A stretch of DNA of 64,000 nt from Dehalococcoidia bacterium (GTDB lineage: Bacteria > Chloroflexota > Dehalococcoidia > UBA6926): contig CBDCYO010000005.1 in the NCBI GenBank assembly GCA_965224255.1, positions 1,107,168-1,171,167 of the forward strand, written 5' to 3'. This document shows positions 3,902 to 63,907 of this stretch, piece by piece. The notes beneath the pieces were generated by a model that saw only the letters and a list, made by a program, of their open reading frames with translations, was not told the origin of the DNA and did no database searches. Every line of letters starts with the position of its first letter. Within the stretch, counting starts at the first letter, position 1. A program made the position numbers and the translations under genes.

Positions 3902-5449
3902 ATGATGGCTCTTGCACACGTACGCAGTTGCGCAGTGGTCGGTCTTGAAGGCTCCATCGTGGAGGTGGAGGTGGACATCGCCCCCGGGCTACCGGCGTTC
4001 ACAATTGTCGGACTGCCTGACACAGCCGTTCAGGAGGCGCGGGAGCGTGTTCGTGCCGCGGTCAGGAACTCCGGCTTTGAGTTCCCGCAGCGGCGGATTA
4101 CCGTTTCCCTTGCACCGGCTGATCTCAAGAAGAACGGCACATCGTACGATTTGCCCATCGCAGCTGGCATTCTGATCGGATCCGGGCAGGCGGGCGCGGA
4201 ATTCTCGCTTGACGCTGCCGCCTTTTTCGGCGAGCTCTCACTGGAGGGGCAGGTGCGGCACACGCAGGGCGTGCTCCCGATGGCGGCGCTTGCCCGGGAA
4301 GGTGGATTAACGCAGATCATCGTTCCCGCCGTTGATGCGCCGGAGGCGGCGCTCGTTGACGGTATTGAGGTTCTGCCGGTGAGTAACCTCCGTGAGATGG
4401 TTGAGCACATCAGTGGGGAGCAGGCATGTCGGCCGTTCTACCAGACTGAGCCGCCACAGGAACCGCGTGGGGCAATTGCAGACGGGTTCGATATGTCGCT
4501 CGTACGGGGGCAAGAGAACGTGAAGCGCGCGATGGAGGTTGCGGCGGCAGGTGGCCATAACCTGGTGATGATGGGACCGCCAGGTAGCGGCAAAACCCTC
4601 CTGGCCCGGAGCTTACCCACCATCCTGCCAACCATGACGCGTGAGGAATCGCTGGACGTCACAAAGATCTACAGCGTCGCGGGGCTGCTCCCACCGGAAA
4701 GGCCGCTCATCTCCGCACGTCCCTTCCGCGCACCACATTACACGGTCTCCAACGCGGGCCTGGTTGGCGGCGGGCAGTGGCCGCGGCCCGGAGAAATCAC
4801 GCTCTCCCATCGGGGAGTTCTGTTCTTGGACGAGATGCCGGAGTTCGGCCATCACATCCTGGAGGTGCTCCGACAGCCACTGGAAGATAAGGCCGTGACC
4901 ATCAGCCGGGCGCAGGGTTCAATCACTTTCCCGGCCAATTTCATGCTCGTCGGCGCAATGAATCCCTGCCCGTGCGGTTTCTACGGTGACGTTATCAAGG
5001 CGTGCTCGTGTACCCCAACGACCATCGATCGATATCAGCGTCGTATCAGCGGACCGTTGCTTGACCGCATCGACATCTTCGTAGACGTGCCGCGCGTCGA
5101 GTACGAGAAGTTGACCGATGAGCACGCCGGGGAGACGTCCGCCGTCGTGAGAAATCGCGTGGGAGAGGCGCGAAGTCGCCAACGGGCGCGCTTCGGCGGC
5201 TCATCCGGTGTGATGACCAATGCAGACATGGGCCCAATCGAGATTCGGGAGTTCTGCGCACTCGATGACGCGTCACACGGGTTGCTCCGCGCAGCGATGC
5301 AGCAGTTGCACCTGAGCGCACGCGGCTTTCATCGTATTCTCAAGCTGGCGCGAACGATTGCAGACCTTGCAGAAGAGCCGACAATCACATCCCGGCACCT
5401 GAGCGAGGCGTTGCAATATCGCCCGCGAGAGCTTGGGGCGGCTGCCTAG
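3902..5449 (+). CDS. comM: YifB/ComM family Mg-chelatase-like AAA+ ATPase
   Basis: MMALAHVRSCAVVGLEGSIVEVEVDI...GLPDTAVQEARERVRAAV (N-terminal Lon-like/ChlI domain), Walker A GPPGSGKT, Walker B VLFLDEMPEF, C-terminal Zn-ribbon CPCGFYGD...CSC; start taken at second Met (ORF opens at 3839). Confidence 0.85.
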   Translation: MMALAHVRSCAVVGLEGSIVEVEVDIAPGLPAFTIVGLPDTAVQEARERVRAAVRNSGFEFPQRRITVSLAPADLKKNGTSYDLPIAAGILIGSGQAGAEFSLDAAAFFGELSLEGQVRHTQGVLPMAALAREGGLTQIIVPAVDAPEAALVDGIEVLPVSNLREMVEHISGEQACRPFYQTEPPQEPRGAIADGFDMSLVRGQENVKRAMEVAAAGGHNLVMMGPPGSGKTLLARSLPTILPTMTREESLDVTKIYSVAGLLPPERPLISARPFRAPHYTVSNAGLVGGGQWPRPGEITLSHRGVLFLDEMPEFGHHILEVLRQPLEDKAVTISRAQGSITFPANFMLVGAMNPCPCGFYGDVIKACSCTPTTIDRYQRRISGPLLDRIDIFVDVPRVEYEKLTDEHAGETSAVVRNRVGEARSRQRARFGGSSGVMTNADMGPIEIREFCALDDASHGLLRAAMQQLHLSARGFHRILKLARTIADLAEEPTITSRHLSEALQYRPRELGAAA

Positions 5450-8899: not shown

Positions 8900-9140
8900 T
8901 ATCACTCTGAAACGCAGCGTTAGCGACCCCTATGTCATTCTGAACGAAGCGTGCCCTCGCATGTCATTCTGAACGGAACGTGACCCCACCATGTCATTCT
9001 GAACGGAACGGAGTGAAGTGAAGAATCTAACGCGCCTCTGCCGCAGTGGGGACATGGATTCTTCGTTGTGCTCAGAATGACAGGGAGCGCTCAGAATGAC
9101 GGGGAGCGCTCAGAATGACAGGGAGGGTGGCTCAGAATGG
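8900..9140. repeat. MITE/REP-like modular palindromic element (3 left arms catgtcattctgaacgNaacg, hairpin core gtgaagaatctaacgcgcctctgccgcagtggggacatggattcttcg, 4 right arms gcgctcagaatgacagggag)
   Basis: Direct reading of tandem arm repeats and the inverted repeat gaagaatc/gattcttc in the core. Confidence 0.8.
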
Positions 9141-9828
9141 CAGAGTGGCGGCTGGTGATGTGCACGGAGGGGTAATCATTCAAACGCGCCCGGTCCAGAT
9201 TAGTTCCTCGGACGGCATCGCCCTGGAAGGACAGCTTGACCTGCCTGATGGGTCCACACCACCAACCGCCGGCGTCGTCGTCTGTCATCCACATTCCCAG
9301 TACGGAGGTGAGATGACAAATAACGTTGTGACCGCAATAGCCTCCGCCATTGTCACGCACGACTTTGCGGCACTGCGGTTCAACTTCCGTGGCGTGGGCC
9401 GCAGCACCGGCACGTACGGAAACGGCATCGGTGAACAGGACGACGCGCTTGCGGCGCTGGGCGCGTTGAAGAACGCGGCGGGTGTTGGGCGTGTCGCACT
9501 AGCGGGCTATTCATTTGGCGGTGGTGTTGCCCTGAGGGCCGCAGGTCGAGTGGGTAGCCTTGCTGCGTTGGCGCTCATCTCACCCGCGATAAGTGATGAC
9601 CAGGAGCAGGACGCCTACGCCGCGCTAGTGATGCCCAAGCTCATCGCAACCGGCGAGGCAGACGACTATGCGAGTATCGAGCGTGTACGGGATCTAGCGG
9701 CCATCCTGCCGGGCGTGACGGAACTCTACATCTCGCCGCAGACCGATCATTTCTGGTGGGGTGAAGAGGACAACCTCGCCCGTCGTGTCGGAGAGTTCCT
9801 GGCCTCGGCGTTTCGTCGAGGTGCGTAG
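9115..9828 (+). CDS. alpha/beta hydrolase fold protein (start uncertain, N-terminus overlaps MITE arm)
   Basis: VVCHPHSQYGG...LAGYSFGGGVALRAA (GxSxG nucleophile elbow) ...PQTDHFW; alternative GTG starts at 9145/9160. Confidence 0.65.
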   Translation: MTGRVAQNGRVAAGDVHGGVIIQTRPVQISSSDGIALEGQLDLPDGSTPPTAGVVVCHPHSQYGGEMTNNVVTAIASAIVTHDFAALRFNFRGVGRSTGTYGNGIGEQDDALAALGALKNAAGVGRVALAGYSFGGGVALRAAGRVGSLAALALISPAISDDQEQDAYAALVMPKLIATGEADDYASIERVRDLAAILPGVTELYISPQTDHFWWGEEDNLARRVGEFLASAFRRGA

Positions 9829-9999: not shown

Positions 10000-10527
10000 C
10001 TACCCTGTCGGTTCAGCCCAGAAAGCCACGCATCCATCCTCTTCCTTTTCGATTAGCAGGACGTCGGCGGTACCTGCCACCCTGCCGCCGGATGCGTTCT
10101 TGGCGGTGAAGTCGACGGCCACGTAGTTATGGTAGCTGCTCCTACCACCCGCGCGCTTAATTGTGAACTCGAATACTGGTATCATCTCCTCCTCCTCCTC
10201 ATCCTCCACCGCTGCGCTGAGTTTCTCGAGGTAGGAAACATTCCAGATACGATCCGGATTCTGTATCTCATTGTTCAGGAAGAGTAGCGTATCCCGCTTG
10301 CTGGACTCGAATGTGGACTCGCTTTGTGGTGTCATGTCGAGGAACTCGTAGGATCCTGGGTCGGCCAGCAAATCCTGGATGGCACTTCTGGTCGACAAGC
10401 TCAAGTGGTGGCTAGTCCTGAACTTCTCCCCGACGGTAGGGCATGGCTGCGGCGGCGGGGTCTCACACTCCGTCTCCGCTGCGCCCATCATGACGATGAT
10501 GACCAGTACAAATAACAGGTACCTCAT
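10000..10527 (-). CDS. secreted acidic hypothetical protein on a low-GC patch
   Basis: N-terminal signal peptide MRYLLFVLVIIVMMGAAE, Glu-rich block EDEEEEEM; local GC clearly below window average, suggesting foreign origin. Confidence 0.5.
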   Translation of the reverse strand: MRYLLFVLVIIVMMGAAETECETPPPQPCPTVGEKFRTSHHLSLSTRSAIQDLLADPGSYEFLDMTPQSESTFESSKRDTLLFLNNEIQNPDRIWNVSYLEKLSAAVEDEEEEEMIPVFEFTIKRAGGRSSYHNYVAVDFTAKNASGGRVAGTADVLLIEKEEDGCVAFWAEPTG

Positions 10528-10559
10528 TATCTTCCTCCCTTGTCTTTCTGCCTCTACAC

Positions 10560-10740
10560 CAGTCCCGTCCGCTTACTTTGCGGAAGGGTTCCATGCCCTG
10601 CCTGTCCTTGCCAAGCCAAGCCAAGCCTGTCCCCGCCTGGCCACGCCACGCCATGTGGCGGTAGATATCCTTGCCGTGCCACGCCACGCACTGCCTCGCC
10701 CAGCCTCGCCTAGCCGTGCCTCGCCTAGCCTCGCCTTGCC
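10560..10740. repeat. simple-sequence/low-complexity tract (ccaagcc x3, gccacgcc, cctcgcc/tagcc units; G-rich GGCGAGG units on minus strand) in the promoter region of the secreted-protein gene
   Basis: Visible short-period repeats; overlaps only spurious ORFs. Confidence 0.6.
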
Positions 10741-10783
10741 ATAAGGAGAGGAGCTGCGCAAGGCTAAACGCAAGGTCGCTGAT

Positions 10784-10836
10784 ACAAAGAGAGGAGAAGG
10801 GGATCTGCACATGCGCGATTCCCTTCTCCTCTTTGT
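10784..10836. promoter_or_regulatory. 17-bp perfect inverted repeat stem-loop acaaagagaggagaagggg...cccttctcctctttgt, 140 nt downstream of the MaoC-like gene stop
   Basis: Perfect palindrome read directly; no U-tract after it on the minus transcript, so the stem-loop is certain but a terminator role is unproven; aagagaggag motif recurs at 10745 and 10930. Confidence 0.35.
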
Positions 10837-10974
10837 CACGCCCATTGTCCTCGCTCTTGCCTTATGGCGCGCCGAGGCAAAAGGGGCCATGCGCATGAGC
10901 GCAACACGCGCTACGTGTACGTCCGAATAAAGAGAGGAGTGTTAGCCGGACGGCGGCGGCTCTAAGCCCTTCGT

Positions 10975-12079
10975 CTAGCTCTTCGAAGGTAGCGTCGCGA
11001 TGACAGGGCCCGGACCAACGGAGACGTTTCCGTTGGTGGATAGGACGGATTGCAGTTCGATCTCGATGAGGTTCTCCCCGTTTTCCTGCCACGTACGCTT
11101 GACTGTGCCGCCAGTAACGACGGTGTCGCCGACGGTGCTGAAGACGCGCATGCGGAATGAACCGATCTGCTTGATCCGACCACCGAGGCCGATAAACTCG
11201 CGCGCCACACGCTCCCACATGCCATTGTGGAAGTAGTTCATGGCGTACATATCGGCCGCGCCGCCGGCCTGCGCAACAACGGTGTTGTGATGGATGGCGT
11301 TGAAATCACGATTTGCGCCCGCGGCCATGACCATCCGCTGTATCGTCAGCGGATAGTGCACGGCGGGAACCTCATCGCCCTCGTTCACATCCTCCCAGTA
11401 GCGTTGGGAATCCCAGTCAATGGACGGGTTCGACCGCGGCTCAATGGTGCGCGCCGGCTTCTCCTCACCCGTGGCGGATGCGGCAGCCGCCCCCGCAGAG
11501 GGGTTGGGGATGTAGGTGTAGCTGACCATCAGTTGGCGCCCAACAGTGACGCCGCTCTGATTTTCAAACAGTGACTCATACGTGAGGAACGCGCCGTCGC
11601 CGACTCGCGTCCTGCGGGGGTTCACGTCCAGCAGAGTCTGCGACACTTGCGTTACCCGCTCTCCAACGTAGAGTGGCTTCAAGAACTCAACCTCAAGATC
11701 CGTAACGAAGCCGGCGGTGCCAGGCGAGGGCACGTTCTCCGTCTTGCCGGCACGGCCCGTGCCGGAGTTTGTGAAGTGCGGATCGTCCGTCGGCCAGATG
11801 CTGCCCAAGCCGGGCTCCCACATGGACGCCGTCTGGAACGTCTGAATCATGTGGAGCGGCGCGAACACGCCATCGTAGCCGTTCCTTCGCGCGACGGCAT
11901 CGTCAAAGTGCAGCGGACAGTCCATTTCCAGGACCTCCATTTGGCGACGGATCGCGCTGTGCTCCACCGCATCGATGCCTGTCTTGGGATCGAGCATGAT
12001 GTCACGCCCGACGAATTCCATGGTTGCCGACCAATCAAGCTCTGATTCGTTTGATGACGTCATCGTCTTCTCCTTGCCC
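10975..12079 (-). CDS. MaoC-like (double hotdog) dehydratase
   Basis: Two hotdog-like halves (N-terminal MaoC_dehydrat_N-like, C-terminal ...AIHHNTVVAQAGG...GGTVKRTWQENGENLIEIE); start trimmed to MGKEKTMTSS because the upstream 150 codons of the ORF run through a MITE. Confidence 0.6.
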
Positions 12080-20659: not shown

Positions 20660-20789
20660 GCTGGGTTCGCTTCTCCAAGAAAACGGTTACGGCACGTCGT
20701 AGCGTTTCTTAATGTGCATCTGTATCCAGATGAGCGCAAGCACGGAGGCAGCTCATTCGTCAACGGGGACGTGCGCTCCCCGTCATTCC

Positions 20790-21062
20790 CATTTGCCCCC
20801 GTCGTTCAGAATGACGTGGTGTGCGTGCCGCATCCGTCGAGGGCGCGCGCTGGCTGTCTTCTCCGCCCCTGCGGCCCTGGGGGCATAGATTCTTCGCTGC
20901 GCTCAGAATGACAAAAGGTAAACGCTCAGAATGACCGGGAGGCGTACGTAATGACAGGAAGGCGTACGTAATGACAGGAAGGACGCTCAGAATGACAGGA
21001 AAAGCGCTCAGAATGACAGGAAGGACGCTCAGAATGACAAAAGGAAAGGGAATGACGGCGTA
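20790..21062. repeat. MITE/REP-like element with expanded right arms (6 x gcgctcagaatgacagg / cgtacgtaatgacagg units)
   Basis: Direct reading of tandem ~22-bp arm units and core gcatagattcttcgctgcgctcagaatgaca. Confidence 0.8.
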
Positions 21063-25594: not shown

Positions 25595-26932
25595 ATGGTC
25601 GAAACGAGCACACCGTCCCAGCAGCGTATGAAAACGCCGCTCCTGGTGCGGCGCACCCCGTTCTTCTATGGCTGGGTCATCGTTGGGCTGACGTTCACCA
25701 CCAGCATGATCACGGCGGGCATCAGCGGCTATGGCCTCTCCTTCTTCGTCGTGCCCATGAGCGAGGCGTTGGGCGTCTCCCGCGCCGAGTTCTCATCCAT
25801 TACCCTGTTCCGACTTGCTGCCATACCGCTCGTTCCTCTCCTTGGCATGATGGTTGATCGAAGGGAGGGGCCGCGGCTGATCATCATGATCGGCAGCTTC
25901 TCCGCCGGCCTCTCGCTCATCGCATCCTCGTATGTGCAAAACATGATGCAGTTCTACCTGACGTTCGGCATCTTCTTTGGCATTGCCATGATGGCGATGG
26001 GTGGACAGCTTGTCGGGCCTGCCGTTCTCGCCAAGTGGTTCGTCAAGCAGCGTGCGCGCGTCATGGCGATCAGTGCCATCGGTATCTCCGGCGGTGGCTT
26101 CGTCATTGCGCCGATAGCCGGCCAACTTGTGACCGCGCTTGGGTGGCGCGATGCCTGGGTCCTCCTCGGCGTTGGAATGATTCTCATCGTCGTGCCCGCA
26201 GCGGCCCTGTTCATGCGCAGGCAACCCAGCGACGTTGGCCTGACGCCTGACGGCATCATTCAACCTCTCCCGGCAGATGTGCGCACCGCCCCCGACGATG
26301 GAATCGCCACAGTGCTCCCAGACGAGCCCTATGAGTATCCGTGGACGGTGCGCGAGGCGGCGAAAACGGTGGCCTTCTGGGCACTGCTGGCGGCACAGGT
26401 TCTCGCCCTCTCCTCCCTGATGCCCATCCTCTTCCACCAGGTTGCCTACATGCAAGACAAGGGGTTGGGAACGGACGATGCGACACTCGTCGCAACTGCA
26501 CTCGCAGGATTCGCCATCCTGGGGAAGATCGTCTACGGATACATCGTTGAGCGTGTGCACGTTCGTTGGGTGTTGGCACTCTCTATGATGCCGGCAGGAG
26601 TATCCGTCCTCCTGCTGGTTATGGGATCGAGTCGTGAGATTCTGCTGGCCTATGCCGTCGCCCACGGGCTCACCATGGGCGGGTTCATGCCCCTCATGAA
26701 CGTGGCCCTTGCCCAGTATTTTGGTCGCCAGCACATGGGCGCTATCCGGGGGGCCGTGACGCCACTGGCCAATGTGATGGCCGCCGTCACCCCGTTCGCC
26801 GCGGGCTGGGTGTGGGAACTCTCCGGCACGTACGACCTCGCCTTCACCCTGGCCGGGGCAGGCTGGTTCCTTGGCGGCGTGATCGTGCTGATTGCGGCAG
26901 AGCCGCGAGAGCCAGTGCCGCGCGCAGTGTGA
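25595..26932 (+). CDS. MFS transporter
   Basis: 12-TM profile, ~445 aa, two 6-TM halves separated by a cytoplasmic loop. Confidence 0.75.
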   Translation: MVETSTPSQQRMKTPLLVRRTPFFYGWVIVGLTFTTSMITAGISGYGLSFFVVPMSEALGVSRAEFSSITLFRLAAIPLVPLLGMMVDRREGPRLIIMIGSFSAGLSLIASSYVQNMMQFYLTFGIFFGIAMMAMGGQLVGPAVLAKWFVKQRARVMAISAIGISGGGFVIAPIAGQLVTALGWRDAWVLLGVGMILIVVPAAALFMRRQPSDVGLTPDGIIQPLPADVRTAPDDGIATVLPDEPYEYPWTVREAAKTVAFWALLAAQVLALSSLMPILFHQVAYMQDKGLGTDDATLVATALAGFAILGKIVYGYIVERVHVRWVLALSMMPAGVSVLLLVMGSSREILLAYAVAHGLTMGGFMPLMNVALAQYFGRQHMGAIRGAVTPLANVMAAVTPFAAGWVWELSGTYDLAFTLAGAGWFLGGVIVLIAAEPREPVPRAV

Positions 26933-26934
26933 GC

Positions 26935-27275
26935 GCCCGCATGTCATCCTGACCGATGTGCGGCTGTCCTCACGCCACCCTGACCGGAGCACCAGCGCCC
27001 CACCATGCCGTTCTGAACAGAGCACGCTAGCCGCCGTGTTGCTCTGAACGAAACGTGCCTACCCCATGTCATTCTGAACGGCGCGTCGGCCTCCCCCATG
27101 CCATCGTGAACGGAACGTAGTGGAGTGAAGAATCTAACACGCCTTTGCTGCAGCGGGGACGTAGATTCTTCGCTACGCTCAGAATGACATGGGGGTCGCT
27201 CAGAATGACAGAGGGGATATGCCTCAGAACGACAGAGGGCGTCGGCGGCGGGGAGTGGATTCTTCGCTACGCTCC
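26935..27275. repeat. MITE/REP-like element cluster (6 degenerate left arms, core gtgaagaatctaacacgcctttgctgcagcggggacgtagattcttcgctacgctcagaatgaca, right arms, second partial core)
   Basis: Direct reading. Confidence 0.8.
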
Positions 27276-44654: not shown

Positions 44655-44681
44655 GGCGACAGTATACGCCGGGGTGTTTAG

Positions 44682-45220
44682 CCGGAACGCGGCGCGCGAA
44701 CGACATGGGCACGATACGGCGAGTCGCGACGTTCAGAAAAGCCGGAACGCGGCAAGCGAACGACACGGGCACGGCACGGCGAGTCGCGACGTTCAGAAAA
44801 GCCGGAACGCGGCGCGCGAACGACATGGGCACGATACGGTGAGTCGCGACGTTCAGAAAAGCCGGAACGCGGCAAGCGAACGACATGGGCACGATACGGC
44901 GAGTCGCGACGTTCAGAAAAGCCGGAACGCGGCGCGCGAACGACATGGGCACGGTACGGCGAGTCGCGACGTTCAGAAAAGCCGGAACGCGGCAAGCGAA
45001 CGACATGGGCACGATACGGCGAGTCGCGACGTTCAGAAAAGCCGGAACGCGGCGCGCGAACGACACGGGCACGATACGGCGAGTCGCGACGTTCAGAAAA
45101 GCCGGAACGCGGCAAGCGAACGACATGGGCACGGTACGGCGAGTCGCGACGTTCAGAAAAGCCGGAACGCGGCGCGCGAACGACATGGGCACGATACGGT
45201 GAGTCGCGACGTTTAAAAAG
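44682..45220. repeat. tandem array: 9 x 60 bp (alternating two variants, so 120-bp higher-order period)
   Basis: gccggaacgcggc[gc/aa]gcgaacgaca[t/c]gggcacg[at/gc/gt]acgg[c/t]gagtcgcgacgttcagaaaa repeated head to tail; no unique spacers. Confidence 0.95.
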
Positions 45221-45452: not shown

Positions 45453-46970
<1,518 letters not shown>

Positions 46971-56689: not shown

Positions 56690-56975
56690 CTCTTGTCAGT
56701 GGTGCCCGCCGCCGTGTGATTCCGGGTGCTGTCACCCCTGAGCGCCCTTCTGGCATTCTGAGCGCAGCGAAGAATCTATGTCCCCACTGCCGCATACGCG
56801 CAAGAGCACGCACGGGTTTAGATTCTTCACTTCACTACGTTTCGTTCAGAATGACATGGGCGGGGTGGCCCGCCGTTCAGAATGACAAGGTGGTGGCCGT
56901 GTTCCGTTCGGAATGACAGAGTGCTGCTGCGCATCCGTTCAGAATGACATGGTTGTGCTACGCATCCGTTCGGAA
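56690..56975. repeat. MITE/REP-like element (orientation B core cattctgagcgcagcgaagaatctatgtccccactgccgcata...gtttagattcttcacttcactacgtttcgttcagaatgaca plus 4 degenerate arms)
   Basis: Direct reading. Confidence 0.8.
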
Positions 56976-56984
56976 TGGCAGGTA

Positions 56985-57130
56985 GAGAGTGCCCGCGCAT
57001 GTTGGCGCGCAGGCCGCGCTCAGCGGCAGTGCACTGTGTCAGGTGGAGAGTGCCCGCGCACGTTGGCGCGCAGGCCGCGCTCAGCGGCAGTGCAATGTGT
57101 CAGGTGGACCCGCGCACGTTGGCGCGCAGC
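56985..57130. repeat. tandem array ~2.3 x 63 bp (gtgcccgcgcaYgttggcgcgcaggccgcgctcagcggcagtgcaMtgtgtcaggtggaga)
   Basis: Shares the core AGCGGCAGTG..GTCAGGT with the fabI-leader arrays; directly abuts a MITE. Confidence 0.85.
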
Positions 57131-57131
57131 C

Positions 57132-57488
57132 TTACACAGCGCGACGGCTGAACGCGTCTTCCGTATCGAGCCTGGCGTACGTCTCCACGCCCAATTCGGT
57201 GGGTCGGTAGCGACGCATGAAGCCCCGCTCCTCCCCCTCCACTTCCTCGATGAAGCCCCCCTCAATCAACGCGCGGGCGATCATCTCGCCCATGTAGCCG
57301 CCCGCCGGCAGCAGGTGACCGCCCATCGGCGCGCCCGTCGAGGCGAACGTTCGGCAAATATCACGCAGCGCCTGCGCCGCTTCAATCATCATGCTTTCCA
57401 TGACGCGCGTCACCACGGGCGTCCCGCGGACGACTCCGACGAAGTCATCAAATGCTGGCACGTATCCCTCCGTCAGGGTTCTTCTCAC
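57132..57488 (-). CDS. hypothetical protein
   Basis: 118-aa ORF, no motif recognised. Confidence 0.35.
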   Translation of the reverse strand: MRRTLTEGYVPAFDDFVGVVRGTPVVTRVMESMMIEAAQALRDICRTFASTGAPMGGHLLPAGGYMGEMIARALIEGGFIEEVEGEERGFMRRYRPTELGVETYARLDTEDAFSRRAV

Positions 57489-57655: not shown

Positions 57656-58942
57656 ATGTCCTCAGTGCAACCCGAGGAGACGCAGCACGAAGTCCGTTCA
57701 GATGCGCGGAGTGCGCCCACGTCCTTCCTGGGAGCGCTCGCCGTCGCCAACTTCCGTACCTACTGGTTCAGCGCCATTTCCTTTGTCCTGGGGTGGCAGA
57801 TCCTCCGCATCGTCCTCGCCTGGGAGGGCTATGAGCTGACCAAATCGGAGTTCTACCTCGGCCTGCTCGGCCTCGCCATGGGGCTCGGCACGGTCAGCGT
57901 TAACCTCATCGGAGGCGTCGCGGCCGACCGTGTCAGCAGGCTCGCCCTCCTCATCGTCACCCAGATCAGCATGACGATCGCCGTGACCATCCTCATGGTG
58001 TTGACCTTTGGCCACATCCTCGCCCCCTGGCATCTCCTGGCGGCCTCGGCCGCCATCGGCATCATTCAGGGCATCGATCAGCCCACGCGTACCGCCGTGA
58101 TCCCCGCGCTCATTCCGGACCGGCGACTCCTCATGAACGCGCTCGCGCTGGGCTCCTCCGTGTGGCAGGGGACGCGAGTGTTCGGGCCGGGACTGGGCGG
58201 CGTCCTGATCGAGCTTGTCGGCTCCGCCATCACCCTCGGGACGGTCACCATCGGATTCGGACTGGGCACGCTCATGCTCTTCTTCGTCCGCATACCGCGG
58301 GCGGTACGACAGCCCGGCAACGTCATCAGAGAACTTGTGGACGGCCTGATGTTCATCGCGAGGCGCAATCTCTTCGCCAGCCTGATCGCGCTGACGTTTG
58401 TGGACAGCTTCTTCGGTGTGGCCTACATCCAGCTCATGCCCGTCTTCGCCACAGACATCCTGAAGATTGGCGCGAACGGCATGGGACTGCTGATGGGCGC
58501 ATCGGCTGCCGGCGCCCTGGTGGGCACATCACTGGCCGCATTCTGGGTGAAGGGGAGATGGCCGTTGATTCTGCTGCTGGGCGGCGCGGGGCTGTTTGGC
58601 GTGATGGTCGTCATCTTCGCCCTCAGTCAAATCCTCTGGCTCTCCCTCGCCGCGCTCTTCCTCTCCGGAACCTTCAACTCGCTGTCGCAGATCACCAACC
58701 TGACCCTGCTCCAGAGCGCCGTGCCGGAAGAACTGCGTGGCCGCGTCATGGGGGTCTTCAGCCTGACCTACAGCCTCATCCCATTGGGCGGTTTACAGGT
58801 CGGCGCGCTGGCCGAGTGGACGAACACCCCGACGGCCGTCGCCATCGGAGGCACCATCGCGGCCCTCTTTGCCGTTCTCCTTGCGCTCAGAACCGGCTTC
58901 GCCCGCGCTGTCCGACAGGCCGCCCGCACCGCCGCGGGCTAA
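57656..58942 (+). CDS. MFS transporter
   Basis: 12-TM profile, 428 aa. Confidence 0.75.
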   Translation: MSSVQPEETQHEVRSDARSAPTSFLGALAVANFRTYWFSAISFVLGWQILRIVLAWEGYELTKSEFYLGLLGLAMGLGTVSVNLIGGVAADRVSRLALLIVTQISMTIAVTILMVLTFGHILAPWHLLAASAAIGIIQGIDQPTRTAVIPALIPDRRLLMNALALGSSVWQGTRVFGPGLGGVLIELVGSAITLGTVTIGFGLGTLMLFFVRIPRAVRQPGNVIRELVDGLMFIARRNLFASLIALTFVDSFFGVAYIQLMPVFATDILKIGANGMGLLMGASAAGALVGTSLAAFWVKGRWPLILLLGGAGLFGVMVVIFALSQILWLSLAALFLSGTFNSLSQITNLTLLQSAVPEELRGRVMGVFSLTYSLIPLGGLQVGALAEWTNTPTAVAIGGTIAALFAVLLALRTGFARAVRQAARTAAG

Positions 58943-58974
58943 CCCCGGCTGGCGTGCGTGCCGCCAAGCGGCAG

Positions 58975-59240
58975 TGGCCCCATGCCATTCCGAACCCCTT
59001 GTCATTCCGGAGCACCCTTCTATCATTGCGCCCGTGTCCATGCCATTCCGTGGCCCCCCCGGCATTCCTGAGGTCCCCCTCCTGTCATCCCTGAGCGTAG
59101 CGAAGAATCTACGTCCCCATTGCCGCAGGGGCACAACACCACACGCACGGCCTGACACACGCGTTTAGATTCTTCACTCCGCTGCGCTCCGCTCAGAATG
59201 ACAGGGCGAAGTAACGTTCCGTTCAGAATGGCATGGTGGT
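58975..59240. repeat. MITE/REP-like element, left copy of the composite flanking the R-M fusion gene
   Basis: tgtcatccctgagcgtagcgaagaatctacgtccccattgccgcaggggcacaacaccacacgcacggcctgacacacgcgtttagattcttcactccgctgcgctccgctcagaatgacagggcgaagtaacgttccgttcagaatg; nearly identical to 62560-62720. Confidence 0.85.
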
Positions 59241-59261
59241 CGTGTGCCGATCGCAGCACTG

Positions 59262-59447
59262 ATGGTAGGACGCGGCGTGCCTATAAAGCCAAGCGGCAGT
59301 GTCAGGTTTAAAAAGCCGCACTGGTGGTAGGACACGATGTGCCGATAAAGCCAAGCGGCAGTGTCAGGTTTAAAAAGCCGCGGTGGTGGTAGGACGCGAT
59401 GTGCCCAAAGGAGCCAAGCGGCAGTGTCAGGTTTAAAAAAGGGCGCG
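59262..59447. repeat. tandem array 3 x 62 bp (fabI-leader unit tggtggtaggacRcgatgtgccgataaagccaagcggcagtgtcaggtttaaaaaRccgc)
   Basis: Each unit ends with GTGTCAGGTTTAAAA = GTG-S-G-L-K, the start of fabI; third copy carries aaggag like the functional fabI RBS; last copy overlaps the 3' end of the R-M gene. Confidence 0.9.
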
Positions 59448-62414
59448 GGCATCACGAGGGCGCGGTTTGCCCCCATGCACGGACGGCTCCGCGCACCACT
59501 TCTGCGCCAACCGACGCACTCCCCGATACACCTCCTCATCGAAGCCGAGGAGGTCCATCACCACACGCCTGTCCAGCTCATCACGACTCGGATCCGCGTC
59601 CGCCAGATACGCCGGCAAAAATTCCTTATCCCGGAAATCCTCGAAGATCATCTGCGCCATCAGCAACTGGTCATCACTCAATAACCGCAAGTCCAGAACG
59701 GGAAGACTTTCGGCGGATAGGTGAGAAATACTCCCGCGTCCGCTCTGCTGGCGGGTGGAGTGCCACCAATATGACACCAGACCCAGAGTCGAGTTGCCCC
59801 ACAGGGTGAAGGCGTAATCGAATCGCCTATCTGCAAATATGGCGTTAGGCCACGCTCTGCCGCCAATGGACTCGACTTCTGTGAATGCGGCTGCCAAAGG
59901 CTGCGAGTTGAATCGGAAGTCACAATTTACGTGAGCACGGCTAGCGGTAGCCCAAACAGTCGCGGCCTTCGCTTCCATGCCCTGCCTGACAAGCAGCTGG
60001 GAATCGGGCTCCACGACCATGCGCGTTTCCTTCGTGGCGTCATGGTTCCAGAGGGAAGGATAGGTCGCAGTGGGGCTAGAGTGTGCTCTGTCGAAGGGGC
60101 CCGAAGAACCAGCGATGTTCAGGTGATACCATCCACGCCTACCGATGTCGCTGAAGGCTGCTACCTGTAGCTCTACAGAGGAGCCTACGCCTGGGAGCCA
60201 CAGCCGTGAGCGCGCCAGCGCATAGGCGGTCTGAGCCAGAGAGGAGTCGGCCAGCCGCACCGCGCTCCAGCTTTCCCCATCCAGACCGACCGGGGCAGTA
60301 ATTGTCTCGCCTACCAACGCCTCCCCGACTGTGAGGGGCGTGCCGCCGTAGGGTCCGTCCTCGATCTGTCTGACCTGGCTGCCGTCCAACAGCCTGCCCG
60401 CCAGTGCACGTGCGTGCGCCAGCCCCTGAGGTCTGTTGCCAAAGGAGGCAAAAAGCGAACGCTCGTGAGGGGGAGGGGGCGTTTTAAGCTTTTGCGCAAT
60501 GACCAAGCATTCCGCCATTCCGGTATCGGACGAGAAGGACATGTCCCGACCGTTGGCCGCGATACTCAGGACGGTCATGTCCTCATAGTCACGGGCGAGC
60601 ATCGTCCTAAGCTTTTCCCATGACATACCGTTGGCAGCTGTAAGGGGAATCACCAGCGCTAGGACGCCGCCGGGCTTGATTTTCCGATGTGCTAGCGCCG
60701 CAAATGCGGAGGGGATCCCCGCGTTGCCGTGGTAGCTGGAAGCCCTTCCAAGACGATTAATGCGGTCCCCCATCTCCGTCTGGTCGGCACGTGTGCTGTT
60801 AAAGGCAGCGAAGGCAGGATTCGTGATGTCGAAGTGGGCGCCCTCATGGTTAGTTGCTCTCGTAAAGGGCGGGTTCATGATGACAAGGTCGAGGCTCTCA
60901 TCGGGGATGTCGGCGTACACGTTCTCCGATACTTCTTCCGTCGCTCCGCCAACGCGCATCGCCGGGCCGCCGCCCGCGTGCGTCAGCGTTACGGCCCTGC
61001 TCCCCGCCAGAAACTCCAGAGAACCCAGCTTGACGCTGCCATCGGGCTGGCGGCCATAGGGCATCGTATAGAGTCGGGATGTCGAATACGGAACGGTTGG
61101 CTCCATACCCGCAAGTGTCGCGGCGGTGATGTGGACGGCGGAGGGCATGACGTCAAAGCCCATAAGGACGTTCTCCATCATCGCACCGTGAAGGTCCTGC
61201 GGGTCGCCCCCCGTCCGCGCGTTTTGCCGGGCAATCTCCGCGTACACCGCGGAGAGGAGCGCCCCAGTGCCGCACGCGAAGTCAGCGATGCGCAGCGCGC
61301 CGATGGCCTCGGCATCGGACCAGTCCACGCCCTCCAATTTCGCGACGGCAAGCTGCGCAAGCAGCGCAGCGGACGCTGGCCGCGTGTAGAAGGTGGCGAG
61401 GTACTTGCGATCCGCGATCAGGCGCTGAAAGACGCGGCCCGTCAGGTCGTGCGCATTATCGATGCCGGCGGCGTGGACGTAGTTACCGGTCTCGCTGAGG
61501 ATGCGGATCACGCGCGCGGCGGGCTCGGCGGGAAGGCATTCGATGATGCGTCGCGCGATGTCGAAAATGGGAAAGTAATTGATCTCCAGGATGCGATTCC
61601 ACATCGCAATCAGCTGAGCGTTGGGCGTTCCGGAGCGCTCGATTGCAGACAGGGTCATGATGTCTGCGTCCGGATGCATGCCGACGATCCGCTCATGGAA
61701 GACCATGGCGTTGGCGACAATCGCCGCGGCCATGCGTCGCGTCTGCTCCACGTTCTCCATGCCGAGAACGCGGGCAATTTCGATGTTGATGGCGGGACGC
61801 GTCCCGTTCAACTCCGTGAGCACGGCCGCGGCGTTATCGATGCCACGCTCAAGGTTCTCGGCGGCCTCGTCCACGGCCCGTTGCGGCACGGACACCAGAT
61901 GCGCCATGTCAGCGAGGTCCTCGATGGCGCCGTCCAACCAACCCGCCTCGGGGAAGCGCACTTGCCGTTGGTTATTTCTGGCGCCTTCATGCGTCCAGAT
62001 GACATACGACAATTTGGCCTTACGCAGCTCCTGCGCGACATCGCCGGCGGCATCACGCAACTCTGCCGGGTAGCGCACGGCGATGACGACCTCGATCTCA
62101 CGTGCGCCTTCCGTCGTGCGGAGTCCGAGTCGAGCGCGCGCGTCGTCCTCAACGGTGCGGGCGGGCATGAATTCCGCCTCGATGGCGACCGGCGACCTGC
62201 CGTTCATAGTGACGAGAATGTCCGGGCGACGCCGTGGCTGCCCGCTGACGACGTCCGTTTCTTCTGCGGCGACGTTTGATCGCGGCAACATGGGGCGCAG
62301 GGCATCCGCGAGCGTGGTATTCAGAGTGGGCTCAGTGTGGGCCATGGCGGGATTAGTGTAGCGCACAGCCGCGCCCCCGCAGCATCCCTGGCCGCCCTTC
62401 CTGTCAGTACTCAC
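59433..62414 (-). CDS. single-chain Type IIG/IIL-like restriction-modification fusion protein (gamma-class N6-adenine MTase with N-terminal nuclease-like domain and C-terminal TRD)
   Basis: Motif I IADFACGTGALLSAV, motif IV VIMNPPFTRATN (NPPF); N-terminal RRPDILVTMNGRSPVAIEAEF resembles PD-x(n)-E-x-(K) nuclease core but lacks the Lys; 993 aa, size/architecture like MmeI-family enzymes. Confidence 0.65.
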   Translation of the reverse strand: MSTDRKGGQGCCGGAAVRYTNPAMAHTEPTLNTTLADALRPMLPRSNVAAEETDVVSGQPRRRPDILVTMNGRSPVAIEAEFMPARTVEDDARARLGLRTTEGAREIEVVIAVRYPAELRDAAGDVAQELRKAKLSYVIWTHEGARNNQRQVRFPEAGWLDGAIEDLADMAHLVSVPQRAVDEAAENLERGIDNAAAVLTELNGTRPAINIEIARVLGMENVEQTRRMAAAIVANAMVFHERIVGMHPDADIMTLSAIERSGTPNAQLIAMWNRILEINYFPIFDIARRIIECLPAEPAARVIRILSETGNYVHAAGIDNAHDLTGRVFQRLIADRKYLATFYTRPASAALLAQLAVAKLEGVDWSDAEAIGALRIADFACGTGALLSAVYAEIARQNARTGGDPQDLHGAMMENVLMGFDVMPSAVHITAATLAGMEPTVPYSTSRLYTMPYGRQPDGSVKLGSLEFLAGSRAVTLTHAGGGPAMRVGGATEEVSENVYADIPDESLDLVIMNPPFTRATNHEGAHFDITNPAFAAFNSTRADQTEMGDRINRLGRASSYHGNAGIPSAFAALAHRKIKPGGVLALVIPLTAANGMSWEKLRTMLARDYEDMTVLSIAANGRDMSFSSDTGMAECLVIAQKLKTPPPPHERSLFASFGNRPQGLAHARALAGRLLDGSQVRQIEDGPYGGTPLTVGEALVGETITAPVGLDGESWSAVRLADSSLAQTAYALARSRLWLPGVGSSVELQVAAFSDIGRRGWYHLNIAGSSGPFDRAHSSPTATYPSLWNHDATKETRMVVEPDSQLLVRQGMEAKAATVWATASRAHVNCDFRFNSQPLAAAFTEVESIGGRAWPNAIFADRRFDYAFTLWGNSTLGLVSYWWHSTRQQSGRGSISHLSAESLPVLDLRLLSDDQLLMAQMIFEDFRDKEFLPAYLADADPSRDELDRRVVMDLLGFDEEVYRGVRRLAQKWCAEPSVHGGKPRPRDARALF

Positions 62415-62765
62415 GCCCCCCGTGTCACTCCGGGTGCTGCATCGCCATTGCGCATGCCCCCGTCATTCCTGAGCGTCCCCTCTGTCATTCGTGAGCGCCC
62501 GTGTCCATGCCATTGTGGGTGCTTCAGTGTCATCCGTGAGCGCCCCTCTGTCATTCCTGAATGCCGTCGTCTGTCATTCTGAGCGCAGCGAAGAATCTAC
62601 GTCCCCATTGCGGCAGAGGCGAACCACCACACGCACGGTCTGACACACGCGTTTAGATTCTTCACTCCACTACGTTCCGCTCAGAATGACAGGGCGAAGT
62701 AACGTTCCGCTCAGAATGACAAAATGGGGAACGCGCCGTTTACAACGACATGGTGAAGTGGCGTG
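62400..62765. repeat. MITE/REP-like element cluster (6 left arms + orientation-B core + arms), right copy of the composite
   Basis: Direct reading; core 62575-62700 near-identical to 59085-59215. Confidence 0.85.
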
Positions 62766-62794
62766 TCGTTTAGAATGGAAGGGTGGTCGTGTGC

Positions 62795-63150
62795 CGATCG
62801 CAGCACTGGTGGCAGGACGCGATGTGCCCATAAAGCCAAGCGGCAGTGTCGGGTTTAAAAAACCGCGGTGGTGGTAGGACACGATGTGCCGATAAAGCCA
62901 AGCGGCAGTGTCAGGTTTAAAAAACCGCGGTGGTGGTAGGACACGCTGTGCCGATAAAGCCAAGCGGCAGTGGCAGGTTTAAAAAACCGCGATGGTGGTA
63001 GGACACGATGTGCCGATAAAGCCAAGCGGCAGTGTCAGGTTTAAAAAACCGCGATGGTGGTAGGACGCGATGTGCCGATAAAGCCAAGCGGCAGTGTCAG
63101 GTTTAAAAAAGGAGCTAAGCGGCAGTGTCAGGTTTAAAAATAGATCTCTC
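62795..63150. repeat. tandem array ~5.7 x 62 bp (fabI-leader unit) ending in the genuine fabI RBS/start
   Basis: Same unit as 59262-59447; final partial unit gives aaggagctaagcggcagGTGtcaggtttaaaaatagat = RBS + GTG start of fabI. Confidence 0.9.
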
Positions 63151-63907
63151 TGGCAAGAACGCCGTCGTTCTCGGCGTGGCGAATCACCGCAGCATCGCTT
63201 GGCACATCGCCCTGGCGCTCCGCGATGCCGGCGCGCGACTCTACCTCACCTATCAGAACGAGCGACTCGGTGACGGCATCCGCAAGCTGACTGAGGGCAT
63301 GGACGCTATCACCCTCATCGAGTGCGACGTGTCCGAGGACGCGAACATCGAGGCAGCGTTCGATCAGATAGCCGCGGACGGCGGGAAGACAGTGGACATC
63401 CTGACGCACAGCATCGCCTTTGCGAATCGCGACGATCTCGGTGGCGATTTCTCGCAGACCGGGCGTGAGGGCTTCCGCATCGCCCTGGAGGTCAGCGCCT
63501 ATTCACTCATCCCCGTCGCCCGCTACGCCGCGCCACTCATGTCCCCGGGCAGCGCCATCGTCACGCTTACCTTCCAGGCCTCAGACCGCGTCTTCCCCGG
63601 CTACAACATCATGGGTACGGCCAAGGCGGCTCTGGAGAACGAGGTTCGCCAACTGGCCTATGAGCTTGGGCCCCGCGGTATCCGCGTCAACGCCCTCTCT
63701 CCGGGCCCACTGGATACGCTCTCATCACGCGCGATCCACGGCTATGTGGACATGAAGCGCATCCAGGCGGAGCGCTCGCCGTTGCAGCGCAACATCACGC
63801 ATGATGAGGTGGCCAAGGCGGCGCTCTTCCTGCTGAGCGACCTCTCGAGCGGCATCACGGGCCACGTCCTGCCCATCGACGGCGGCTACCAGATCGCCGG
63901 CGTCTAG
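63125..63907 (+). CDS. fabI: enoyl-[acyl-carrier-protein] reductase (NADH), FabI
   Basis: LSGKNAVVLGVANHRSIAWHIA (FabI N-terminal Rossmann), catalytic Y...K (YNIMGTAKAALE), SPGPLDT; GTG start 11 nt after aaggag. Confidence 0.85.
   Translation: MSGLKIDLSGKNAVVLGVANHRSIAWHIALALRDAGARLYLTYQNERLGDGIRKLTEGMDAITLIECDVSEDANIEAAFDQIAADGGKTVDILTHSIAFANRDDLGGDFSQTGREGFRIALEVSAYSLIPVARYAAPLMSPGSAIVTLTFQASDRVFPGYNIMGTAKAALENEVRQLAYELGPRGIRVNALSPGPLDTLSSRAIHGYVDMKRIQAERSPLQRNITHDEVAKAALFLLSDLSSGITGHVLPIDGGYQIAGV

Follow-up and report, generated by a model that had tools for sequence, protein, structure and literature searches.

How does a conserved gene of an essential type come to begin inside a tandem repeat? 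The question is raised by a 64,000-nucleotide stretch of a Dehalococcoidia bacterium genome (assembly GCA_965224255.1, contig CBDCYO010000005.1, positions 1,107,168 to 1,171,167; hereafter the window), in which fabI, the gene for enoyl-acyl carrier protein reductase, is preceded by a tandem array of 62-bp units, here called array B, whose last copy carries the fabI start codon. A first-pass annotation of the window took this array to be an amplified fabI 5' end, acting perhaps as a promoter array, a regulator-binding array, or a decoy system of upstream open reading frames (uORFs). We favor the opposite line of descent, at a probability of roughly three in four: the fabI start would derive from the repeat, rather than the repeat from the fabI start, and the array would be a lineage-specific minisatellite. 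What argues for a repeat-derived start is that fabI orthologues lack the corresponding DNA, GTGTCAGGTTTAAAAA, while the very same unit recurs at a locus that has nothing to do with fabI.

Array B occupies positions 62807–63140 and contains ~5.4 copies of a 62-bp period with 95% matches. Tandem Repeats Finder (TRF) reports it as two overlapping rows, one at 62807–63110 (period 62, 4.9 copies, 95% matches, score 545) and the other at 63082–63140 (31-bp, 1.9 copies). The units, of the 40–100-bp size familiar from minisatellites of the mycobacterial interspersed repetitive unit–variable-number tandem repeat (MIRU-VNTR) type, lie head to tail without spacers, and a sixth copy is cut down to the 24-nt core AAGCGGCAGTGTCAGGTTTAAAAA (63117–63140, 0 mismatches), which occurs nine times in the window at ≤1 mismatch versus 0 times in 100 shuffles. 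The copy numbers given for the arrays of the window come from the one genome of the species. The fabI GTG at 63125 lies in this last core copy, as had been noticed at the outset, and identity to the repeat ends at 63140, the first base of fabI codon 6 (ATA). The early remark that the period is not a multiple of three also stands, with the six GTGs of the array falling in frames 2, 1, 0, 2, 1, and 2. GTGs 1–4 each open a 24-codon ORF (MSGLKNRGGGRTRCADKAKRQCQV*) that stops at GTT-TAA, 10 nt past the GTG of the next unit, the final one of these ORFs stopping at 63104–63106, 3 nt before the fabI Shine-Dalgarno sequence; from the fifth GTG runs a 59-codon ORF, which overlaps fabI in a different frame. 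The claim that every unit carries both GTG-S-G-L-K and a GATAAAG box is true of most of them, but not of unit 1, which reads CATAAAG and GTGTCGGG, nor of unit 3, which reads GTGGCAGG and hence encodes MAGLK.

Because an in-frame TAA (63116–63118) rules out any longer fabI ORF, and because the next in-frame start after 63125 falls within the Gly-rich nucleotide-binding motif (LGVAN), the GTG at 63125 is the only workable start for the gene. An AAGGAG (63109–63114) lies 10 nt upstream of it. The 3' end of the 16S rRNA has the canonical sequence GGAUCACCUCCUUUCUAG, with its CCUCCU anti-Shine-Dalgarno, and many genes in the window feature an AGGAG or GGAGG 4–12 nt before their start. Judged from these sequence signals, fabI is most likely now translated from the repeat-borne start. 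The gene itself is intact, and a ratio of nonsynonymous to synonymous substitution (dN/dS) of 0.04–0.07 against five orthologues, at a dS of ~1.0–1.2, places it under strong purifying selection. The NCBIfam FabI models align to the predicted protein only from residue 6–8 (E = 2e-86 over residues 6–258, below the strict equivalog cut-offs). Orthologues are 82–92% identical to it.

Comparison with relatives places the boundary between repeat and gene at the same point. The window FabI (P0001) is a singleton in the protein collection, its nearest homologues coming from Chloroflexota metagenome-assembled genomes (MAGs). All 19 of the 19 nearest orthologues examined (67–92% identity) start with MY(S/P/A)(I/V)(D/E)L and none with MSGLK, so that MSGLK-IDLSGK in the window stands against MY(S/P)-IDLSGK in the orthologues; their length is 253–259 residues, with the exception of P0008 (336 residues, with insertions), compared with 260 in the window. 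At the DNA level the orthologous genes begin ATG TAT YCN ATT GAY CTC. In three related loci, L001, L002, and L004, which share the order MFS transporter (major facilitator superfamily), variable genes, fabI, and hisS, a common box GC(G/T)(C/T)TACAATAG(G/A)AA is found 60–75 nt upstream of ATG TAT, and the start that follows reads ATG TAT (TC[AG]/CCA) (G/A)TT GA(T/C) CT(C/T). Nowhere in the window does the TACAAT box of these loci occur, even at 3 mismatches. In a four-way DNA alignment the window matches the three loci only from T(A/T)GATCTC on, at ~63140–63143; the first invariant aligned column is the T at 63141, and upstream of the point of resumption the alignment shows no homology.

The 62-bp unit, sought by its 24-mer core, is absent from all 126 of the 126 loci fetched, related or other, and exact scans with the core gave 0 matches in GTDB species genomes, JGI metagenomes, and IMG/VR; contigs of the same species, sought with a fabI-specific 25-mer, likewise gave 0 matches. 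Since it is absent from every relative and public collection scanned, the unit, on this comparison, is not a conserved regulatory feature of fabI.

What the fabI locus lacks in its relatives is found elsewhere in the window. A second array of the same unit, array A, with 3 copies at 59256–59440 (59256–59439, period 62, and 3.0 copies by TRF), lies 3.4 kb from array B, between the 3' ends of the MFS transporter gene (57656–58942) and of a large minus-strand methyltransferase-like gene, whose TAA stop (59433–59435, minus strand) is provided by the array end GGTTTAAAAAA. The unit thus sits in two different intergenic regions of the window and is dispersed, in agreement with the first-pass annotation in so far as it had assigned the motif to a family rather than to a one-off duplication. 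The ORF at 59361–59684, which it had counted among the fabI uORFs, belongs to array A instead. The leaders of the two arrays are identical over GGTGGTCGTGTGCCGATCGCAGCAC (alignment of 58930–59470 with 62380–63160), and their terminal modules, at 63107–63140 and 59407–59439, differ at one position in 33. Each array also has variants of its own, AAAAAGCCGC in array A and AAAAAACCGCG in array B, which shows that units have been amplified or homogenized locally at each site.

These observations bear directly on the proposal that the fabI 5' end was tandemly amplified and now works as a promoter array, regulator-binding array, or uORF decoy. In its favor, the 3' 24 nt of the unit are identical to the fabI start, every unit has an ORF-opening GTG, the B-specific AAAAAACCGCG points to some amplification in place, and, the upstream gene being divergent, the fabI promoter must come from repeat-derived DNA. 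Against it, the same unit forms an array at a non-fabI locus, and the orthologues have neither the MSGLK start nor its DNA. The functions proposed for it fare no better, given that the unit is conserved in no relative, contains no TANNNT and no sigma-70-type site, and places no Shine-Dalgarno sequence before its interior GTGs. We regard the proposal as decidedly improbable, and the claim of an amplified fabI 5' end is not upheld by the start MY(S/P)IDL of the orthologues.

The order of events is indicated by two further relatives, L125 and L126, found through homologues of the large minus-strand gene. Both have the gene order of the window, namely MFS, a 989-aa methyltransferase-like gene on the opposite strand, fabI, and hisS, with spacers that are far shorter (Table 1) and free of the 62-bp unit. 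In the window, both spacers consist almost wholly of an array and of the cluster of palindromic repeats to its left, a combination that we refer to as a composite. At composite B, on the fabI side, homology to L125, L126, and L004 ends at ~62362 on the left and resumes at 63140/63141 on the right; at composite A, it resumes at GGGCG(C/A)GGGCATCACGAGG. Relative to the empty sites of L125 and L126, 150–270 nt have been replaced, rather than a clean insertion made, and no target-site duplication is recognizable. The comparison implies that fabI and the methyltransferase-like gene were already neighbors, and that the composites were laid down later, in the lineage of the window.

The sequence of events that we favor would then be as follows. 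The 62-bp array would be a minisatellite that continues a palindromic repeat cluster beyond its right arm, and two such composites would have been laid down on either side of the ancestral methyltransferase-like gene, each replacing a short native spacer. The right-hand composite (~62363–63140) would have overwritten what fabI had upstream, namely the TTACAAT box and the leader, together with codons 1–3 (ATG TAT YCN), with the surviving junction setting the last, truncated copy of the unit in frame with fabI codon 4. Junctions without an in-frame start were presumably lost. The number of interior units would change by slippage or recombination, and the fabI promoter would now lie in the repeat-derived DNA at 62346–63124, because the upstream gene is divergent.

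Two direct-orientation composites bracketing a 970-aa gene might also suggest the att-like or Campbell-type direct-repeat ends of a mobile cassette that carries the methyltransferase-like gene, the more so since the interval between MFS and fabI holds other defense-type genes in other relatives. Such a cassette is contradicted by L125 and L126, where the gene occupies this position in this orientation between spacers that are short and free of the repeats, unless these relatives later lost the repeats on either side of it; the two clusters are only 88–92% identical, and similar clusters stand elsewhere in the window without cargo. We consider this reading scarcely credible. Very little probability, too, is left to an assembly artefact, in which mis-joined repeats would have produced the copy number or the junction of array and fabI. 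Such repeats do pose difficulties for assembly, and a single assembly exists; but individual units carry their own single-nucleotide polymorphisms together with the array-specific variants, the distinct flanks of the arrays align to relatives on their outer sides, and the junction yields an in-frame start, a workable Shine-Dalgarno spacing, and a constrained gene.

As to where the unit itself came from, local alignments to the sequence before the fabI ATG of L125 and L126, GGTGTAGGA(C/T), and to the MFS spacer, GGTGGTCAGGACA, do not rise above shuffles (336/500 and 213/500 at or above the observed score). The best alignment of any native spacer to the unit is reached by 6/500 shuffles, before correction for 14 tests, and derivation from a 31-bp sub-repeat of the cluster arm is not significant (67/500).

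Table 1. Positions of the repeats, genes, and spacers discussed in the text, in window coordinates.
Feature	Position	Strand	Remarks
Third composite	56690..57129	+	Cluster 56690-56978, then 61-bp x 2.5 array of a different unit, 56979-57129; from repeat mapping
Cluster A and leader	58960..59259	+	Partial unit GTGCCG-CCAAGCGGCAGTG ahead of the cluster, 58955-58976
Array A, three 62-bp units	59260..59440	+	Last unit has AAAGGAG 59407-59413 and GTG 59424
Large N6-adenine-methyltransferase-like gene (type II/IIG-like)	59433..62345	-	Conserved Met 62345; same position in L125 and L126
Cluster B, like a cluster of MITEs or REPs	62363..62782	+	Homology of relatives ends at ~62362; boxes and inverted repeats mapped
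Leader GGTCGTGTGCCGATCGCAGCAC(TG) linking cluster B to array B	62783..62806	+	Present at both 62-bp arrays
Array B, five full 62-bp units TGGTGGTAGGACRCGATGTGCCGATAAAGCCAAGCGGCAGTGTCAGGTTTAAAAAACCGCGR	62807..63116	+	From TRF and unit listing
Terminal truncated module AAAAGGAGCT-AAGCGGCA-GTGTCAGGTTTAAAAA	63107..63140	+	AAGGAG 63109-63114, in-frame TAA 63116-63118, GTG 63125-63127
fabI, enoyl-ACP reductase, 260 aa	63125..63907	+	Residues 1-5, MSGLK, repeat-encoded; orthologue homology from residue 6
Hairpin-module clusters in the window	~8930-9145, 20770-21060, 26930-27270, 56690-56978, 58977-59235, 62363-62782		
Spacer, MFS stop to methyltransferase-like stop			L125 35 nt, L126 30 nt, window 490 nt
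Spacer, conserved methyltransferase-like Met to fabI ATG (GTG in the window)			L125 153 nt, L126 271 nt, window 779 nt

Do the interior units nevertheless act on fabI? No Shine-Dalgarno sequence precedes the interior GTGs, where GATAAAGCC or GATAAAGCCAAGCGGCA stands instead and no AGGAG is found. TANNNT hexamers are missing from both strands of the 62-bp consensus, the GATAAAG that had been likened to a -10 box is without the conserved final T, and a scan of 62300–63300 for sigma-70-type promoters and terminators returned 0 sites. At the gathering threshold, Rfam recognizes only rRNA and tRNAs in the window, and by E-value its best match in 62300–63250 is a sub-threshold Prion_pknot (E = 0.099). 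The predicted folds of the unit, of a dimer, and of the whole leader reach z values of about -0.8 to -1.4 versus shuffles. By default we read the interior units as translationally and transcriptionally inert passengers.

Several more specific candidates were considered and set aside. A tandem promoter array, one of the functions first proposed, finds no support, with no TANNNT in the consensus unit and 0 sigma-70-type -35/-10 sites. The same is true of a translational decoy or any regulatory uORF or leader-peptide system, the interior starts having no ribosome-binding site and the unit being absent from the relatives scanned. A model in which hairpins hide the interior GTGs and leave the terminal one open is unsupported, since the folds are no better than shuffles; a CRISPR array is ruled out by contiguous units with no unique spacers; and in an array of integron attC sites the sole GTT-led heptamer, GTTTAAA, would violate GTTRRRY.

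A more general role can be imagined, in which the array is a functional variable-number module whose length tunes fabI through the length or structure of the 5' untranslated region, or through a relay of termination and reinitiation. The geometry of the ORFs and the placement of the array flush with the start codon are suggestive in this respect, and there is a published precedent in which a repeat region ending at a start codon correlates with expression (PMC2734929). Yet the interior starts are without Shine-Dalgarno sequences, the folds reach only z ~ -1, and array A has the same architecture without a gene to regulate; we think such a module unlikely.

The terminus of the composite deserves separate comment. 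AAGGAG is not part of the consensus unit and is present only in the two terminal modules, as AAAGGAGCY. The composite thus ends at a defined terminus, and the translation-initiation region there is present either by chance or through selection. A bolder version would make the composite a portable 5' end, its terminus AAAGGAGCY-N8-GTG-TCAGGTTTAAAAA providing an outward-facing ribosome-binding site and start codon while the phased array tunes whichever gene it has landed on, a notion that we think unlikely. The tuning may proceed by copy number, by a termination-reinitiation relay of the 24-codon ORFs, or by the binding of a host protein. If this were true, the expression of fabI would be under repeat-length control in this organism.

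Several points tell against the view of the array as a passive minisatellite that happened to donate a start codon. The terminal unit of array A also reads AAAGGAG-N10-GTG, and yet no plus-strand gene follows it, so that the Shine-Dalgarno sequence is not demonstrably an adaptation to fabI. No promoter was located in the 779-nt repeat-derived spacer, and the use of GTG 63125 is deduced only from reading frame, Shine-Dalgarno sequence, and homology. Finally, the phased A-tracts (GGTTTAAAAAACC every 62 bp) and an imperfect dyad within the unit, GACAC..TGCCG/CGGCA..GTGTC, could each bind protein.

The arrays are but one part of the composites, the other being the clusters. Clusters A and B measure ~300–400 bp, the right part of B being 92% identical to A. 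The left arm carries GTCATTC boxes, the center a hairpin AGCGAAGAATCTA...TAGATTCTTCAC, and the right arm GAATGACA boxes at a spacing of ~30 bp. In each case, the array has the entire inverted-repeat cluster on its left, and neither a tail module nor a terminal inverted repeat was found after the arrays. No gene of the RAYT/TnpA type was seen in the window. Near 9.0, 20.9, and 27.1 kb there are further clusters, none with a long array.

A third composite, in which a cluster is followed by a 61-bp array, corresponds to what the first-pass annotation had described as a related 63-bp array at 56985–57130; a related array does exist, though with a period of 61 and at 56979–57129. Similarly, the isolated copy of the motif that it had put beside a MITE (miniature inverted-repeat transposable element) at 58946–58966 is present, but at 58966–58976. 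What the 61-bp unit has in common with the 62-bp unit is limited to AGCGGCAGTG and TCAGGT, and the relation of the latter to both the 61-bp unit (5/300 shuffles for the shared 10-mer) and a 60-bp unit described below (42/300) is weak. This array ends 2 nt from the stop (57132) of a minus-strand ORF, and all three of the ~60-bp arrays in the 56–63 kb region are flush with a gene boundary (57132–57134, 59433–59435, and 63125–63127). Either an array grows until it is halted by selection, or the ends of genes are preferred sites for the insertion of composites.

In the window and at loci L005–L124, the clusters are made of a hairpin module of ~26 nt, GTCA-NN-CYGA-(loop with GCGNAGC)-GARG-N'N'-TC. 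Its variable stem positions are complementary in 227/231 of the instances listed, versus 175 ± 3 with shuffled partners, and five types of stem pair occur (TT/AA, TC/GA, CC/GG, TG/CA, and CT/AG). The module has no match in Rfam, and a full-text literature search for its sequence returned only unrelated papers, mostly on eukaryotic systems. A 21-base pattern of it, AGATTCTTC-N5-20-GCTCAGAATGAC, is found in at least 120 GTDB species genomes of many phyla, which among the matches listed include Nitrospirota, Acidobacteriota, Chloroflexota, Bacteroidota, Clostridia, and Helicobacter. The module has the look of a hairpin of single-stranded DNA or RNA, similar to the repetitive extragenic palindromes (REPs) and very widely distributed. 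In a Nitrospirales MAG (OZ251550.1; L008, 1912–2319), a 57-bp x 6.0 array with 92% matches begins immediately after a half-cluster, AGATTCTTCGCTTCGCTCAGAATGAC, an arrangement that brings hairpin module and ~60-bp array together in another phylum and is the only clear case among 120 loci listed.

Other tandem arrays were encountered along the way. Between the 16S rRNA gene (45456–46966, minus strand), on the side of its 3' end, and a minus-strand gene whose ATG (~44654) sits 6 nt after a TATACT hexamer, the window has a 60-bp x 9.0 array at 44680–45220 (93% matches, score 956). Its units end in CGTTCAGAAAAGCC and the last copy in CGTTTAAAAAGACC, which is similar to the way the 62-bp unit ends, in GGTTTAAAAA. 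The 45 kb downstream of the 16S gene contain no 23S rRNA gene, which indicates that the rRNA genes are unlinked. Locus L004 has, downstream of a LysR gene, a 56–58-bp tandem array of ~12 copies (10316–11018) that shares GCCGATA(A/G)AGC...GCGGC with the 62-bp unit at a borderline level (3/300 shuffles) and is overlapped by a called 228-aa gene without a Pfam match, probably spurious.

Repeats have entered the surroundings of fabI in relatives as well. The fabI leader of L126 (4757–5027) contains a 22-bp x 4.5 tandem repeat of its own (4808–4907, 97% matches) along with a GGGAATGACG box, and L002 has CGCGGGAATGACGG directly before the fabI ATG, which suggests that the region upstream of fabI has been invaded by the repeat family repeatedly and independently. 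P0008, the 336-aa FabI homologue (74% identity), is extended at its N-terminus by a segment with ILAYARMTE and interrupted within the FabI core by an in-frame insertion of ~50 residues, RLRGNDGGGAGSDGGEGTG...; the two have the appearance of translated GGGAATGAC-type repeat DNA, which would place a repeat inside the fabI coding sequence of a relative.

The interval between MFS and fabI is a variable hotspot in the clade. It holds a 119-aa retropepsin-like gene alone in L002, that gene plus a 520-aa ORF of unknown function in L001, a GmrSD and a HEPN gene in L004, and the ~970-aa methyltransferase-like gene in L125, L126, and the window. That L125 and L126 share this last gene in place and orientation, without the repeats, means that it predates the composites. 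GGTTTAAAAAA of array A supplies the last approximately two codons of the methyltransferase-like protein, the C-terminus of which otherwise ends with those of its homologues. The longest ORF, of 993 aa (P0121), runs on to 62414, 23 codons upstream of the conserved Met and into cluster B; the annotated 23-residue N-terminal extension (62346–62414) is probably spurious.

Taken as we read it, the locus offers a clean and comparatively dated case in which a core gene of fatty-acid synthesis has lost its promoter region, leader, and start codon to a small non-coding repeat, one that replaced them instead of just landing nearby, and has not been inactivated. Identity between a repeat and a gene start, it warns, need not mean that the gene was amplified. 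For annotation, repeats account for FabI residues 1–5, for the C-terminal end of the methyltransferase-like protein, and for the 23-residue extension at the N-terminus of the latter. No new mechanism emerges from this, nor is a long-standing question opened; the element is ordinary and its consequence neat.

We take the element to be an interspersed bacterial minisatellite joined to a small palindromic repeat, and do not assign it to any named family. REPs, in the bacterial interspersed mosaic elements (BIMEs) of enterobacteria, are short hairpin modules repeated in both orientations. The clusters described here are likewise built of a hairpin module, GTCA-NN-CYGA...GARG-N'N'-TC, in both orientations, but the ~60-bp arrays are not made of it. 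Closer in overall design is BrickBuilt of Porphyromonas gingivalis, a MITE with an internal spacer-less minisatellite and with leader and tail subunits, restricted to its species and present in several copies per genome; its units are of 23 nt, it always lies 49–591 nt from coding sequences, and it has demonstrated promoter elements (PMC4596501). Both combine an inverted-repeat element, a spacer-less minisatellite, and a leader in intergenic DNA, whereas the arrays described here run into coding sequences, no promoter motif was detected in them, and the enclosure of the array that BrickBuilt and pneumococcal BOX elements show is not seen.

The MIRU-VNTRs of Mycobacterium tuberculosis, too, are 40–100-bp tandem units scattered through intergenic regions, and one such region (ETR-F/VNTR3239) ends at the start of fpg1, is absent in related species, and correlates with expression (PMC2734929). 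There is no sequence relation between the two systems, and in ours the native start codon has been replaced rather than abutted; the unit is not a multiple of 3, no continuous ORF joins the flanking genes, and the arrays are fused to a palindromic cluster. Nor do unit ORFs overlap both flanking genes of an operon, as in the strict MIRU anatomy, the upstream gene here being divergent and only the downstream start overlapping. Small repeats are able to create promoters, as the Correia elements do, or to insert in genes that remain functional, as in Rickettsia, and the BOX elements of pneumococcus (boxA-(boxB)n-boxC), which are MITE-like and variable in length, have a terminal module that can supply the start of an ORF leaving the element (PMC3049150). 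BOX and the composites of the window are alike in being modular, with a tandemly amplified internal module. They differ in the absence here of a tail module, of a terminal inverted repeat, and of any recognizable target duplication, in the 62-bp length of the unit, and in the use to which the start codon would be put, which in BOX serves a nascent ORF and here a conserved gene of an essential type.

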